This document shows positions 60,985 to 62,670 of a stretch of 64,000 nt of DNA, in pieces (the stretch's first letter is position 1; each line of letters begins with the position of its first letter). The notes under the pieces are model-generated. The model was not told the origin of the DNA. It saw nothing but the letters and a program-made list of their open reading frames with translations, and did no database searches. Origin of the DNA: Dehalococcoidia bacterium. Lineage in GTDB: Bacteria; Chloroflexota; Dehalococcoidia; Lucifugimonadales; Australimonadaceae. The stretch covers positions 17,455-81,454 of the forward strand of contig DAOUJK010000041.1 of the NCBI GenBank assembly GCA_034422795.1, in the 5' to 3' direction. A program made the position numbers and the translations under genes.

Positions 60985-62670
60985 ATGACTACACAACCCG
61001 CTCCCGCGCCCCCTGAAGGCTACATATTCCCGGACACCCTCCCGCCGCAGGAAAGGGCATACGCCAACCGCCTCAGGTACGCCCTCCGCTGTGGCGTACC
61101 CGGCTGCGGCTGCGCAGGCGGCCCCCTCATCCACTGTCCTTCCCACCGCCACGCAGAGGCCCCGACCCTCACCGTCTCCTACAACCCGGACCGCGGTTTC
61201 TCCTTCGCCTGCCCCAGTTGCCCGCCGAGCCGCGTCGCGGATGCCCTCGTGAAACGCGGCCTCGCGTCGGAGGGGGAGTTCTACATGTCTGGCGCCGCGC
61301 AGGCAGCCGGGCTCCAACCCTTCAACTTCCTCATCCAGCAGCCGCAGGACTGGCTCTGGCCCAACCGCATCCCGCTCGGCAAGCTCACCCTCATCGCTGG
61401 CTACCCATCATCCGGCAAGACCTCGATCGCCCTCGACATCGCCGCTCGCGTTTCACGCGGCGCAGCAGCCCCGGACCAGCCGGACGCTGCATTCCCCTGT
61501 ACTCCCGTCGTCCTCGCCCCCCTCAACGGCAACCCGAAGGCCGACATCCTCCCCATGCTCCGCCTCTTCGGTGCCGACCTCACCCGCGTCTACCTGGCAG
61601 ACCTCCTCTCCCCCACGCATCCCGTCGACTACTACCCCGATGACCCGCCCGACGACGAGGACGACGGGTACTACTTCGAGCCCGAGGACGATTTCGACGA
61701 GGACGATGAAGACGACGAGGAGTACCTGTTCGACAACGACGGCAATGAGATACGTGTTCCCCGCCGCCGCAAGCCGGTCGGCCTGAAGGCGCCCGCTCGC
61801 GACCCCTTCTGGACGCCCGCCACGTCCGGCTCGAAGCTCACCGCGCCCTGGCCCGCCTTGGACAAGATCATGGGGCGGCTCGCCAACTATGTCGCCGAAG
61901 GAAGGGCTTCCCTCCTCGTCGTCGACCAGGCGGAGGACCTCGCATCCATGCACCGCGCACGGCTCTCCACCGTACTCGGCATGCTCAACGCGCTCGCTGC
62001 CCGCTCCGGCGCAGCCGTGCTCGCCCTTACCCACAACCCCGCCCCCAACTACCCCCGCGCCGTCTCCGCCATGCGGCAGCGTCTCGCCCAGGCTTCCGTC
62101 GTCTTCACCACCGCCCTCGTGGGCTCCGGCGGTCGCCGCTTCCTCGTCCCCCTTCGCCCCGCGATGAGCGACGACGCCCCCGCCATCCCCTTCGTCCTTC
62201 CACCTTCCCCGTCGCTCCCGCGCTTGAGCGCGCAGCCTCGCACCCCACCTCTCTCTCGGGGAGAGGTCGTCGCGCACAACGCGGCGGGTGAGGGCCGCAT
62301 TCCACCTCTCCCCGGGGGAGAGGTCGCCGCGCCCAGCGCGGCGGGTGAGGGTTTCACCGTCGCTTGGCGCAAACCCGTCTTCCCCGCCCACCTCCACGCC
62401 CTGGCCGACCCTAACCGTGACTATGGAGCGAGAACTCGCGCCGCTCAAGCATTCCTTACCCGCGCCCTCGCAGACGGCCCCCGCTCCGCCGCCGAGGTCG
62501 AGCGCGAAGCCGCCATGCACAGCATCGCCAGGCGCACCCTCTTCCGAGCTCGTGCCCTTTGCGACATCAGGTCTACCCGCATCGGTGCCCCCGGAGCCCC
62601 CGGCGCTGGCGCGTGGCACTGGTCGCTCCCGATACGAAACACTCTGCAACAGGATGAGACACCCCGATGA
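60985..62670 (+). CDS. RepA/DnaB-like (AAA_25-type) ATPase with an N-terminal Cys/His zinc-ribbon and a C-terminal wHTH-like tail; mobile-element replication-type protein
   Basis: HCPSHRHAEAPTLTVSYNPDRGFSFACPSC zinc motif. LTLIAGYPSSGKTSIALDIA Walker A. LLVVDQAEDL Walker B. Tail ..GPRSAAEVEREAAMHSIARRTLFRARALC.. Contains two in-frame REP units. Confidence 0.65.
   Translation: MTTQPAPAPPEGYIFPDTLPPQERAYANRLRYALRCGVPGCGCAGGPLIHCPSHRHAEAPTLTVSYNPDRGFSFACPSCPPSRVADALVKRGLASEGEFYMSGAAQAAGLQPFNFLIQQPQDWLWPNRIPLGKLTLIAGYPSSGKTSIALDIAARVSRGAAAPDQPDAAFPCTPVVLAPLNGNPKADILPMLRLFGADLTRVYLADLLSPTHPVDYYPDDPPDDEDDGYYFEPEDDFDEDDEDDEEYLFDNDGNEIRVPRRRKPVGLKAPARDPFWTPATSGSKLTAPWPALDKIMGRLANYVAEGRASLLVVDQAEDLASMHRARLSTVLGMLNALAARSGAAVLALTHNPAPNYPRAVSAMRQRLAQASVVFTTALVGSGGRRFLVPLRPAMSDDAPAIPFVLPPSPSLPRLSAQPRTPPLSRGEVVAHNAAGEGRIPPLPGGEVAAPSAAGEGFTVAWRKPVFPAHLHALADPNRDYGARTRAAQAFLTRALADGPRSAAEVEREAAMHSIARRTLFRARALCDIRSTRIGAPGAPGAGAWHWSLPIRNTLQQDETPR
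62243..62351 (+). repeat. Two tandem 57-nt family-B REP units lying inside the ATPase ORF
   Basis: CCACCTCTCTCTCGGGGAGAGGTCGTCGCGCACAACGCGGCGGGTGAGGG, then CCACCTCTCCCCGGGGGAGAGGTCGCCGCGCCCAGCGCGGCGGGTGAGGG. Same family as the intergenic copies at 60865 and 62840. Confidence 0.8.

Follow-up and report, generated by a model that had tools for sequence, protein, structure and literature searches.

The window (the whole 64-kb stretch of DNA analysed) carries a gene for a predicted ATPase that is bordered on both sides by short hairpin repeats and has related repeats within its own reading frame. The gene belongs to a multi-copy cassette, present in 4–6 copies per genome among housekeeping genes, and the cassettes are usually flanked by hairpin repeats. 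The features of this part of the window are as follows.

60740–60790, + strand: B-like repeat variant, intergenic, reading CCTCTCCCTTGAGGGGAGAGG + GAAGCTGCCGAACGGCAGC + GGAGAGGGTGAACC
60834–60915, + strand: composite A+B repeat, intergenic, shortly upstream of the gene; among intergenic copies the nearest match to A'+B1 of the ORF
60936–60984, + strand: conserved upstream block, TGACATGCCCCCGTTGCGC-N18-TACGAT-N6-ATG
60985–62670, + strand: ATPase gene, one intact ORF of 1,686 nt (561 aa)
61336–62157, + strand: predicted RecA-like ATPase core, residues ∼118–391, Walker A GYPSSGKT
62200–62358, + strand: interdomain linker between the anchors ...AIPFVL and VAWRKP..., 159 nt, versus 21 nt in insert-free homologues
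62211–62242, + strand: hairpin module A', GTCGCTCCCGCGCTTGAGCGCGCAGCCTCGCA, read as SLPRLSAQPR(T); first part of the composite insert
62245–62301, + strand: REP-like unit B1, 57 nt, CCACCTCTCTCTCGGGGAGAGGTCGTCGCGCACAACGCGGCGGGTGAGGGCCGCATT, translated PPLSRGEVVAHNAAGEGRI; hairpin 1 ACCTCTCTCTCGGGGAGAGGT, hairpin 2 CGTCGCGCACAACGCGGCG, tail GGGTGAGGG, then a spacer
62302–62352, + strand: REP-like unit B2; hairpin 1 ACCTCTCCCCGGGGGAGAGGT, hairpin 2 CGCCGCGCCCAGCGCGGCG, tail GGGTGAGGG; translated PPLPGGEVAAPSAAGEG
62353–62625, + strand: C-terminal domain, residues ∼457–547, with a winged-helix-like H-H-H-E-E topology predicted by AlphaFold
62671–62843, + strand: conserved 3' region of the cassette, with the invariant core GGAAGCAGGCCGTGGCC at 62718–62734
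62693–62702 and 62831–62840, 3' region: copy-specific inverted 10-mers TGGCAATCTT and TGGCACCCTT, respectively
62753–62762, 62762–62771 and 62807–62816, 3' region: copy-specific direct 10-mer AAGAGTGCCA
62844–62890, + strand: B unit, intergenic, directly abutting the 3' end of the cassette

The predicted protein begins with a Cys/His-rich domain, which may be CHC2-zinc-finger-like, and continues with a RecA/DnaB-like P-loop ATPase (AAA_25), the repeat-derived linker and a C-terminal winged-helix-like domain. The ATPase domain named in the original prediction is matched by Pfam AAA_25 at 48.7 bits (gathering cut-off 27; E 9.2e-13) over residues 118–177 only, and Foldseek hits for the core are KaiC, Rad51, RecA and DnaB at E ∼1e-5. 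The core includes a conserved acidic disordered loop (residues ∼215–287; 61627–61845). The proposed wHTH-like tail has the expected topology in the AlphaFold model, albeit with no Pfam match, and the N-terminal Cys/His domain has none either. Searches of NCBIfam, PHROGs and PADLOC gave weak Walker-A-level matches only, and tblastn against plasmids and phages matched the Walker-A region alone. In the AlphaFold model, which is of moderate quality (mean pLDDT 59), residues 392–479 have pLDDT values below 50 and are without secondary structure, with folded domains on either side; the repeat insert falls within this segment, where the fold stays undisturbed. The block upstream of the gene is kept across 38 gene copies, and the sequence beyond it is unrelated. 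It resembles a −35/−10 pair, and a putative promoter of this kind would start an mRNA with little or no leader; a simple sigma-70 consensus scan did not call a promoter at 60936–60984.

Two tandem REP units had been proposed within the ORF, and their sequences at 62245–62301 and 62302–62352 are as given originally, the second unit there comprising 62302–62352 plus TTCACC (PPLPGGEVAAPSAAGEGFT). B1 and B2 repeat with a period of 57 nt and 86% identity, both in the frame of ORF 60985–62670, and the 34-nt pattern GAGAGGTCGNCGCGCNNNNCGCGGCGGGTGAGGG has two matches in the window compared with zero expected from 100 shuffles. Folding as DNA gives two adjacent hairpins of 8–9 bp in each unit (ΔG −14.9 and −21.2 kcal/mol; z-scores −3.0 and −4.2). 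B1 is preceded by the module A', absent from the original prediction, which aligns with intergenic A modules such as that at 60834–60865 in the window and is also present in the linkers of homologous loci L046, L040, L015 and L008. With A' added, the insert is not the 38 aa previously supposed; it amounts to 138 nt, or 46 codons, relative to the basal 21-nt linker. The predicted peptide (PSLPRLSAQPRT-PPLSRGEVVAHNAAGEGRI-PPLPGGEVAAPSAAGEG) is rich in Pro, Gly, Ala and Ser, and would be translated as an unstructured spacer of 46 residues. Codon periodicity changes across 62245–62379, where GC3 falls to 0.70–0.73 and GC1 climbs to as much as 0.9, compared with a GC3 of 0.87–0.93 in the ATPase core; this fits a non-coding origin of the insert.

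The comparison covered 107 database homologues, from marine and sponge Dehalococcoidia/SAR202. A basal 7-aa linker, reading ...IPFVLPPAEAFTVAWRKP... straight through, is found in 46 of them, and the other 61 have inserts; in alignment A1 the insert is absent from 12 of the 31 homologues. Of 55 copies examined as DNA, the linker has its basal length of 21 nt in 19 and contains an insert in 36, where it reaches 60–291 nt; in all 55 it is stop-free and a multiple of three in length. The inserts are assembled from V, A, A', B, L and half-unit modules, representing at least five hairpin-repeat families. Segments of the homologues equivalent to the insert are repeat-derived too, and no equivalent non-REP peptide, which would have refuted the original prediction, was found among them. 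V and A modules have 7-bp stems and 4-nt loops, and the in-ORF stems are perfectly complementary by way of compensatory variants (TTCCAGC/GCTGGAA, TTCCCGC/GCGGGAA and CTCCTGC/GCAGGAG). Spacing also differs with location: A and V lie 41 nt apart in intergenic DNA, a distance not divisible by three, and tandem V-type modules in the ORFs of L009 and L052 are 42 nt apart.

Empty and filled linkers are interleaved in a tree of the flanking protein, with the basal state on both deep and shallow branches. The linker of L004 shows an exact return to the basal 21 nt though it is nested among insert-bearing relatives, and this reversion needs either gene conversion or an error in the tree. Comparison of empty and filled alleles shows that 3–9 nt are replaced at the insert junctions; the best case is a CCNCC-like duplication in V-type inserts, and no clear TIR or TSD was seen at these junctions.

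The intergenic copies cited in the original prediction exist, at 60869–60915 and 62844–62890, with longer variants at 35611–35683 and 36349–36421, and related intergenic copies lie at 41707–41750, 41820–41850 and 60740–60790. Over its whole length, the A'+B segment of the ORF can be aligned with intergenic A+B composites of the window and of L004, L005, L033 and L042. The DNA covered was the 64-kb window and the 12-kb flanks of the other loci. B-family units number 51 in the window and loci from at least 14 genomes, with six in ATPase linkers (seven when the first unit of L001, missed by the pattern, is included). V, A and B modules together number 182 in ∼700 kb, of which 38 are in ATPase linkers and 144 elsewhere. 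Stop-to-stop ORFs make up 62% of the sequence but account for 18 of those 144 modules, and in the 11 regions inspected (17 of the 18; L018 7704 and 7865 were left out) the modules precede the apparent true start codon. In this sample the linker is an exceptional hot spot, and other coding DNA is essentially free of modules. A 48-aa query with the insert peptide had no word triplet in common with any candidate from other protein families. An exhaustive HMMER search with the insert peptide returned two giant repetitive proteins only; in the one inspected, P0121, a eukaryote-like tandem repeat happens to resemble the peptide by chance (PPLSxGxVV). Such a search lacks the power to detect a single 19-aa unit, so restriction of the translated repeats to this ATPase family is a statement about the ∼700 kb sampled.

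We conclude, with a probability of roughly 85%, that 62211–62352 is an A'+B+B composite of dispersed, normally intergenic REP-like hairpin repeats, lying in frame in the linker of one intact gene. Two explanations had been offered originally. The first, that repeats invaded a linker and were tolerated as a multiple of three, is supported by the insert-free homologues, the alignment with intergenic copies, the kept frame and the disordered segment. The second is that the 561-aa ORF represents two genes joined by read-through of high-GC repeat DNA; these would be an ATPase gene and a gene for a small DNA-binding protein, artificially united by repeats that happen to be stop-free. Coding periodicity is indeed lost within the insert, and stops are rare in high-GC repeats. 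However, every intact homologue has both parts in a single ORF, whether it contains an insert or not, and in the repeat-free ones only 7 residues separate them; the frame, moreover, is kept in all 55 linkers. A search for an internal start for the C-terminal part found no in-frame ATG, GTG or TTG between 62352 and 62514, and the first start after the insert, at 62515, is inside the predicted winged-helix domain. We therefore reject the two-gene explanation as highly improbable. Relative to 10 homologues, dN/dS is 0.21–0.39 for the N-terminal part and 0.17–0.41 for the C-terminal part in the same frame; to judge from these ratios, both flanks of the insert are under purifying selection. This selection, the lack of a usable start and the disordered interdomain position together argue for one gene with a tolerated repeat-derived linker rather than two fused genes. 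Tolerance can be attributed to the position between two independently folding domains, to the kept frame and to a phase in which the GGGTGAGGG tail is read without TGA; read in frame +2, the insert of the window copy would meet TGA at 62289 and 62346, both within these tails.

A dN/dS of 0.2–0.4 is fairly relaxed. Broken paralogues are found at L012, L038, L044, L045, L048, L053 and L054, and L043 has an IS in its linker. The family thus tolerates decay and the window copy could be on such a path, that is, a decaying non-functional paralogue whose repeats are neutral junk and whose frame is kept by historical accident. A multi-copy family with several members truncated, frameshifted or IS-split makes such a fate plausible, as do the modest constraint and a GC3 of 0.81 in the ORF, below the 0.90 of neighbouring housekeeping genes. 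We nevertheless regard this as distinctly unlikely. The ORF is intact across all 1,686 nt, and L001 shares the same two-unit array at a dS of ∼0.5, so that the repeats have long been carried in frame. Furthermore, the frame is kept in all 36 independent insert architectures, a pattern to be expected only where translation of the C-terminal domain is required. B2 is orthologous to the second unit of L001 (∼96% identical, as estimated by eye), and the array common to both copies is older than their divergence; slippage, in the form of a 57-nt tandem duplication, is the most likely source of the second B unit. The shared array bears equally on whether repeats have been collapsed or chimerically joined in this metagenome-assembled contig, repeats being a classic source of misassembly in metagenomic scaffolds. 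The chance of this is negligible, since L001 (OZ244813.1, 'genome assembly, chromosome: 1') has the same A+B+B in another MAG, P0003 also has two units, and related arrangements recur in dozens of independent assemblies.

The direction of transfer could also have been the reverse, with the dispersed repeats deriving from the linker and spreading with a mobile cassette. The stretch with which the ATPase domain ends, GTCCTTCCCCCTTCACCC (VLPPSP), is similar to the repeat half-unit GTCATTCCCCCTTCATCC (VIPPSS), and such repeats usually flank the cassettes. Against this, modules outside linkers outnumber those inside by 144 to 38, form composite arrays of their own and lie beside unrelated genes; the linker accommodates at least five unrelated module families, and its basal 21-nt state is found on deep and shallow branches alike. 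We consider a linker origin of the repeats very improbable.

Co-option of the segment, as nucleic acid or as peptide, is a further explanation. Hairpins in mRNA or ssDNA could pause ribosomes and set the ratio of truncated to full-length protein, or could provide a cis site for the cassette protein or for recombination, while the peptide could adjust how far the ATPase lies from the DNA-binding domain. The 151-nt repeat region folds strongly as RNA (−92.9 kcal/mol; z −4.9), the in-ORF stems are perfect, and the linker is used far more than other coding DNA and coincides with a module junction. Recent independent insertions of intact repeats predict perfect stems equally well, however, and 43% of homologues are insert-free, with the family, number and reading phase of the inserts varying freely in the others. 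This argues against a specific requirement, and we think co-option unlikely.

Taken as repeats tolerated in a linker, the modules combine properties of several known systems. In proteobacteria, REP/BIME (REPIN) elements are likewise imperfect palindromes of 20–40 nt, abundant, overwhelmingly intergenic and often located just 3' of genes; the modules here are short imperfect hairpin palindromes with many copies biased to intergenic DNA. Both form composite arrays of several module types. A+B, A+V, L+A and V+GTGCGCGGGCAGCGCAC recur here in many loci, although these arrays are mostly in direct orientation and those of REP/BIME alternate. E. coli REPs are targets of IS insertion, and the linker of L043 has been one too. 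To our knowledge, classical REPs are essentially never translated inside conserved genes, and REP-type hairpins are named as extragenic.

The closest precedent for translation appears to be the Rickettsia palindromic elements (RPEs), palindromic repeats that interrupt protein-coding genes while keeping the frame (Ogata et al. 2000, summarised in PMC10969869). In both cases members of one repeat family lie between genes and also, in frame, within a conserved gene that has homologues without the repeat. As that summary presents them, RPEs resemble the linker repeats in being short, palindromic and selfish, in comprising several families and in being translated without destroying the host protein. 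They differ in being single elements of ∼100–150 bp, spread over many unrelated genes of an intracellular alpha-proteobacterium. The linker modules are GC-rich hairpins of 20–57 nt stacked in variable arrays, and in the sampled DNA they are confined to a single site within one multi-copy gene family, whose hosts are free-living or sponge-associated Dehalococcoidia; this site is also a recombination junction, and there is no sequence relationship to RPEs. In-frame intragenic MITEs, such as ERIC, QMITE1 of Coxiella and those of Anabaena (reviewed in PMC10969869 and PMC5896051), similarly place a non-autonomous repeat in an ORF as a translational fusion. The insert differs from these in that the modules are much shorter and accretion recurs at one site, and no clear TIR or TSD is seen at its junctions.

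In-frame selfish repeats are textbook knowledge for Rickettsia and are regarded as rare elsewhere. Here, in a free-living or symbiotic marine lineage, at least five hairpin families have entered one interdomain linker repeatedly and always in frame, with inserts in more than half of the members of the gene family. The linker is in effect a natural experiment in how proteins absorb non-coding DNA as linker and how strongly selection filters for frame and stops. For annotation, the peptides VIPAKAGIQ, FLRRQEPR and PPLPRGEVAA..AAGEG in Chloroflexota proteins can serve as markers of repeat DNA.

B units also resemble whalefall-1 (Rfam RF01762), proposed as a free-standing non-coding RNA and described only from whale-fall metagenomes (Weinberg et al. 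2010, PMC2864571). The composite at 60834–60915 scores 29.8 bits (E 3e-5), B2 24.7 bits (E 0.0014) and B1 21.5 bits (E 0.015), and all three matches span model positions 1–56 with both stems paired. The gathering score of 37 bits was not reached in the window or in 10 further loci, where Rfam at gathering thresholds finds only tRNAs. Shared features are hairpin 1 (CUCUCC-loop-GGAGAG), hairpin 2 and the 3' GGGUGAGG tail, and the intergenic copy at 60869–60915 has a CUUG loop in hairpin 2. To judge from these matches, the B unit is a sub-threshold relative of whalefall-1, with a shorter hairpin 2, which behaves as a dispersed repeat and is predicted to be translated in some copies. This would give the candidate RNA motif of 2010 an organismal home and a different reading. 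RNAalifold with 35 B units, in an alignment compromised by indels, shows one covarying pair, A-U versus C-G, that separates two subfamilies.

The cassette itself has the order of parts familiar from phage P4 alpha and plasmid Rep-iteron modules, in which the N-terminus binds zinc, a helicase-like P-loop ATPase follows and a winged-helix DNA-binding domain forms the C-terminus. As with those modules, it is adjoined by a cluster of direct and inverted copy-specific 10–11-mers; AAGAGTGCCA, AAGAATGTCA and AAGGGGGCCA are examples from different cassettes. It differs in having no primase or HUH domain, in matching plasmid or phage proteins over the Walker-A region alone and in occurring as 4–6 chromosomal copies among housekeeping genes. 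The 3' region was also considered as a structured RNA, which is unsupported (z −0.5 in the window copy; RNAalifold gives short stems only).

Identities of the N-terminal and C-terminal parts among cassettes are poorly correlated (r = 0.17). The class of 3' motif matches that of the nearest C-part neighbour in 30 of 36 copies and that of the nearest N-part neighbour in six. In the pairs L020/L023, L008/L010 and L027/L028, DNA is 95–100% identical up to the linker and 55–75% beyond it. The window copy is 87–94% identical to L003 before the linker and 67–74% after it, whereas its identity to L005 and L013 is 60–85% before and 80–87% after. By these comparisons the C-terminal domain is evolving as a module separate from the ATPase part. 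We infer that the 5' two-thirds (upstream block and ATPase) and the 3' third (winged helix and iteron-like region) have different histories, with the switch point probably at or just after the linker, in the window copy as well. MaxChi over 630 pairs places most optima at 62425–62724, but these positions mainly mirror how much faster the C-terminal part and 3' third evolve, so we used only the strongest mosaics, which fall at 62194–62480. Speaking against a simple switch at the linker, high identity returns for 100–200 nt past it in the pairs L013/L033 and L017/L036.

Repeats may be captured at recombination joints between cassettes or, alternatively, may supply the short homologies for cassette exchanges; selection would then discard all products that are out of frame or contain stops. 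A causal path from recombination to repeat accumulation is what we infer from the overlap, which also suggests that intragenic repeats may help protein modules to shuffle. A more ambitious reading, which we offer as speculation and think unlikely, sees the repeat-filled linker as a working joint rather than a passive site of accumulation. The cassette would be a multi-copy chromosomal element of marine Dehalococcoidia that has not been described before and that swaps specificity modules in frame. An initiator- or helicase-like ATPase would be the 'engine', and a winged helix with a private set of 4–6 iteron-like sites the exchangeable 'specificity' module, with the REP-like hairpins in the coding sequence providing short homologies or hairpin substrates for the swaps. 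If so, intragenic REPs would be domain-shuffling sites, and whalefall-1-type 'RNAs' would be such DNA repeats.

One minor observation concerns a single locus. The '5' insertion' listed for L020 in the locus table is in fact an independent fragment that, together with repeats, lies upstream of a gene that is intact.

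The linker of the ATPase gene (ORF 60985-62670, + strand, 561 aa counted from the ATG), which runs between the AIPFVL and VAWRKP anchors (62200-62358), contains two units of the B hairpin repeat arranged head-to-tail with a period of 57 nt and 86% identity (62200-62360). This was the original observation and it is confirmed: the tandem units are seen directly in the sequence, a 34-nt degenerate pattern over the conserved part of B has two exact matches in the 64-kb window compared with none in 100 shuffles, and both units lie in the frame of the ORF and encode exactly the peptides described. 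Each unit folds into a pair of neighbouring hairpins with a GGGTGAGGG tail after them, and the whole 151-nt region as RNA has a predicted fold of -92.9 kcal/mol (z -4.9). Four other B copies in the window had been described as intergenic, and a GC3-based gene map agrees, placing all copies outside the ATPase ORF between genes or just 5' of start codons.

Repeat modules in the ATPase linker and B copies elsewhere in the window
62211-62242, in the linker: module A', a hairpin recognized by comparison with homologues, GTCGCTCCCGCGCTTGAGCGCGCAGCCTCGCA, read as SLPRLSAQPR
62245-62301, in frame of the + strand ORF 60985-62670: B1, CCACCTCTCTCTCGGGGAGAGGTCGTCGCGCACAACGCGGCGGGTGAGGGCCGCATT
62302-62352, in frame of the + strand ORF 60985-62670: B2, CCACCTCTCCCCGGGGGAGAGGTCGCCGCGCCCAGCGCGGCGGGTGAGGGT
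60869-60915 and 62844-62890, outside the ORF: B-family copies
35611-35683, 36349-36421, 41707-41750, 41820-41850 and 60740-60790: longer or variant B copies

The insert is larger than the two units described. Both are present, but homologue comparison shows that the repeat-derived segment begins upstream of B1, at A', and A' plus B1 align end to end with intergenic A+B composites, one of them just upstream of the ATPase gene (60834-60915) and others in L004, L005, L033 and L042, loci from other Dehalococcoidia/SAR202 genomes. Relative to the 21-nt insert-free linker, the window linker carries an additional 138 nt (46 codons), with 81 nt contributed by A'+B and 57 nt by the second B.

Two explanations had been offered, that repeats invaded a linker and were tolerated, or that two genes are joined by read-through of repeat DNA. 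The gene's codon-position signal is indeed lost across the insert, where GC3 drops to 0.70–0.73 and GC1 climbs to 0.9, compared with a GC3 of 0.87–0.93 in the ATPase core. The read-through explanation is nonetheless rejected. First, the protein has more than 200 homologues of 500–590 aa, with several paralogues per genome, whose sources are all Chloroflexota/Dehalococcoidia (MAGs of SAR202 type or associated with sponges). In an alignment of 31 proteins, each intact member has the Cys/His-rich N-terminal domain, the ATPase and the C-terminal domain in the same order; the sole hypervariable stretch lies between the two anchors, and a 7-residue linker (PPAEAFT or similar) is found in 12 of these 31 and in 46 of 107 representatives from the database. 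Second, dN/dS against ten homologues is 0.21–0.39 on the 5' side of the linker and 0.17–0.41 on the 3' side, in the same frame. Third, there is no in-frame ATG, GTG or TTG from the end of the insert up to 62515, a position within the predicted C-terminal fold. The AlphaFold2 model built with the same alignment (mean pLDDT 59) has a confident RecA-like core that matches KaiC, Rad51, RecA and DnaB structures and is called AAA_25 by Pfam, and a C-terminal H-H-H-E-E domain (residues 467–547, block pLDDT mostly 72–88); residues 392–479, including the insert, are unstructured (pLDDT <50). With homologues that lack the insert, and the insert falling in a disordered interdomain stretch of the model, invasion of a tolerant linker is the right reading, and a full-length protein is predicted.

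At the DNA level we compared the linkers of 55 gene copies, one from the window and 54 from other loci. The basal 21-nt linker is present in 19, and the other 36 have 60–291 nt built of recognizable hairpin modules, A' and B among them.

Further building blocks of filled linkers
Module V: GTCATTCCnGCnnnnGCnGGAATCCAG, peptide VIPAKAGIQ
Module A: GTCGTTCCTGCGnAGGCAGGAACCTCGCA, peptide (S)FLRRQEPR or, in another phase, VVPAQAGTS
Module L: CTCATGGTGAGCCTGTCGAACCAC, peptide LMVSLSNH
Half-units: 21 nt, peptide PPSSVIP, repeated in tandem as many as five times

All 55 linkers are a multiple of three in length and free of stops. Frame-keeping is not intrinsic to the repeats, because A-to-V spacing in intergenic arrays is 41 nt whereas tandem V-type modules in the L009 and L052 ORFs are 42 nt apart. 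Of the three phases of the B tail GGGTGAGGG, one contains a stop, here the +2 frame (TGA at 62289 and 62346), and in-ORF B copies use only the two open phases, ending ...AAGEG in most and ...RRVRA in L017 and the database homologue P0041. To judge from these comparisons, the insert is repeat DNA filtered by selection for frame. In-ORF stems are perfectly complementary despite sequence variants (TTCCAGC/GCTGGAA, TTCCCGC/GCGGGAA, CTCCTGC/GCAGGAG), as would be expected if intact elements had inserted repeatedly. L001, whose record bears the title 'genome assembly, chromosome: 1', has the two-unit array as well, so the array is not an assembly artefact. Between the window and L001, unit 2 is ∼96% identical (by eye), more than the 86% shared by units 1 and 2 of the window, and the duplication is therefore older than the split of these two genes (dS ∼0.48). 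In L008 (7207-7497) and L022 (7213-7308) the 3' part of a long insert (…CCTGTCCATCCTGTCCATCGATGTGAGTTCCC) is the same as sequence (…CCTGTCCATCCTGTCCATCGATGTTGATTT) immediately 5' of the block upstream of the ATPase gene in L010, L022, L027 and L033, so the linker has captured intergenic DNA from cassette flanks.

A census of V, A and B modules in the window and 56 loci (∼700 kb) counted 182, 38 in ATPase linkers and 144 elsewhere. Only 18 of the 144 fall within stop-to-stop ORFs of coding-type GC3, though such ORFs make up 62% of the sequence, and in the 11 regions inspected (17 of the 18 modules; L018 7704 and 7865 left out) the modules lie 5' of what appears to be the real start codon, in a spurious extension of the ORF. 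The 144 are thus essentially outside genes, and in this sample the modules are ordinary extragenic repeats everywhere but in this ATPase linker. A tree built from the flanking protein sequence mixes empty with filled linkers and one architecture with another, L004 (empty) being sister to L046 (A'+B) and next to L001 (A+B+B); inserts have therefore been gained, lost or exchanged frequently. In L043 an insertion sequence of ∼1.05 kb (7240-8290), whose minus strand encodes a DDE/rve-type transposase of 323 aa (7250-8221), splits the gene copy inside an A-type linker hairpin (GTCGTTCCTG, IS, AGTTCCTGCGAAGGCAGGAAC), and IS elements may target the repeat hairpin. Within 6 kb of L001-L056, modules are overwhelmingly in the orientation of the ATPase gene (∼90% of V/A matches and 36 of 51 B matches on the + strand), a possible sign that the repeats are biased by replication strand or by transcription direction. 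A conserved, highly acidic low-complexity loop (DYYPDDPPDDEDDGYYFEPEDDFDEDDEDDEEYLFDNDGNE, 61627-61760) interrupts the ATPase core, is disordered in the model and varies in length, yet never contains repeat modules; the repeats thus leave a second permissive site unused. A perfect 26-nt V-related palindrome, GTTATTCCCGCGCAGGCGGGAATAAC, lies at 22579-22604, directly after the end of the minus-strand ORF 21269-22564.

The linker also coincides with a change in relationships. Pairwise identities before and after it are barely correlated (r = 0.17). The 5' two-thirds can be nearly the same in two paralogues whose C-terminal domain and 3' region differ: for L020/L023, L008/L010 and L027/L028, DNA identity is 95–100% from the upstream block as far as the linker but only 55–75% beyond, and for L013/L033 and L017/L036 it falls off 100–250 nt 3' of the linker. 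The window copy is a mosaic too, with the switch within 62185-62350.

Identity of the window copy to other copies
L003: 87–94% before the linker, 67–74% after
L005/L013: 60–85% before the linker, 80–87% after

The repeats thus lie at or very near a preferred recombination boundary, one that we in part infer to separate an ATPase 'engine' from a 'specificity' module with the linker as junction. A blanket MaxChi scan was confounded by faster evolution of the 3' third. Recombination could deposit repeats at the linker, the repeats could promote recombination there, or both could merely mark a permissive site.

In-frame repeats are a known phenomenon, seen here in a new and unusually concentrated form. 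The closest functional precedent is the Rickettsia palindromic elements, since these too are both intergenic and translated in frame; where PMC10969869 cites Ogata et al. 2000, they are described as selfish palindromes whose host protein survives. Further in-frame cases are ERIC and Coxiella or Anabaena MITEs (PMC10969869, PMC5896051), and REP/BIME arrays, for which association with a RAYT is defining, are alike in structure, being short, palindromic, intergenic, modular and IS targets. What is added is the recombination junction, together with a connection to whalefall-1 (RF01762), an orphan Rfam motif described as a candidate non-coding RNA and reported solely from whale-fall metagenomes (PMC2864571). 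B gives full-length matches to it below threshold (E 3e-5 to 0.015; gathering score 37).

Matches of B to whalefall-1
60866-60915: 29.8 bits
62245-62295: 21.5 bits
62302-62352: 24.7 bits

Ten further loci yielded no match above threshold, and B is not filed under whalefall-1 because its scores fall short of the curated value. Both have two hairpins plus GGGUGAGG, which suggests that they are in one repeat superfamily and that whalefall-1 may belong to the dispersed DNA repeats of marine Dehalococcoidia.

The gene is part of a discrete cassette (60936-62843) present in 4–6 copies per genome amid housekeeping genes. Upstream are ∼50 conserved nt (TGACAyGCCCCCGTTGCGC-N18-TACGAT-N6-ATG), and downstream ∼170 conserved nt (62671-62843) end in TGGCAnnCTTGgTC, past which there is no similarity. 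The 3' region has an invariant core, GGAAGCAGGCCGTGGCC (62718-62734), and 4–6 direct or inverted copies of a 9–11-mer at fixed positions; one sequence occupies all sites of a cassette and differs between cassettes, giving at least seven classes.

Motif copies in the window cassette, AAGAGTGCCA
62753, 62762 and 62807: direct
62693 and 62831: inverted

The motif class is that of the nearest relative by C-terminal part in 30 of 36 cassettes, and by N-terminal part in 6 of 36. Folding of the 3' region as RNA showed no unusual stability, and the motif copies are therefore read as candidate iteron-like protein-binding sites. The cassette looks like a Rep-plus-iteron arrangement, yet sits amid housekeeping genes; we found no adjoining integrase and no defence-system match, and annotated plasmids and phages yielded no close relative. 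In the window (60936-60987) the TTGCGC-N18-TACGAT block ends 6 nt 5' of the ATG and a Shine-Dalgarno sequence is absent, together suggesting a leaderless mRNA. In the database gene calls P0090 and P0098 the ORF starts further upstream and takes in this block. The order secA, cassette, sulP of 58006-64000 is syntenic in L014/L068 (OZ244813.1) and L022/L067 (OZ242210.1), although the syntenic copies are only 61–64% identical to the window protein and the closest copy, L001 (77%), is elsewhere in OZ244813.1. In OZ242210.1 the cassette is inverted with respect to secA. It appears that fixed sites exchange cassettes or that cassettes move from one such site to another.
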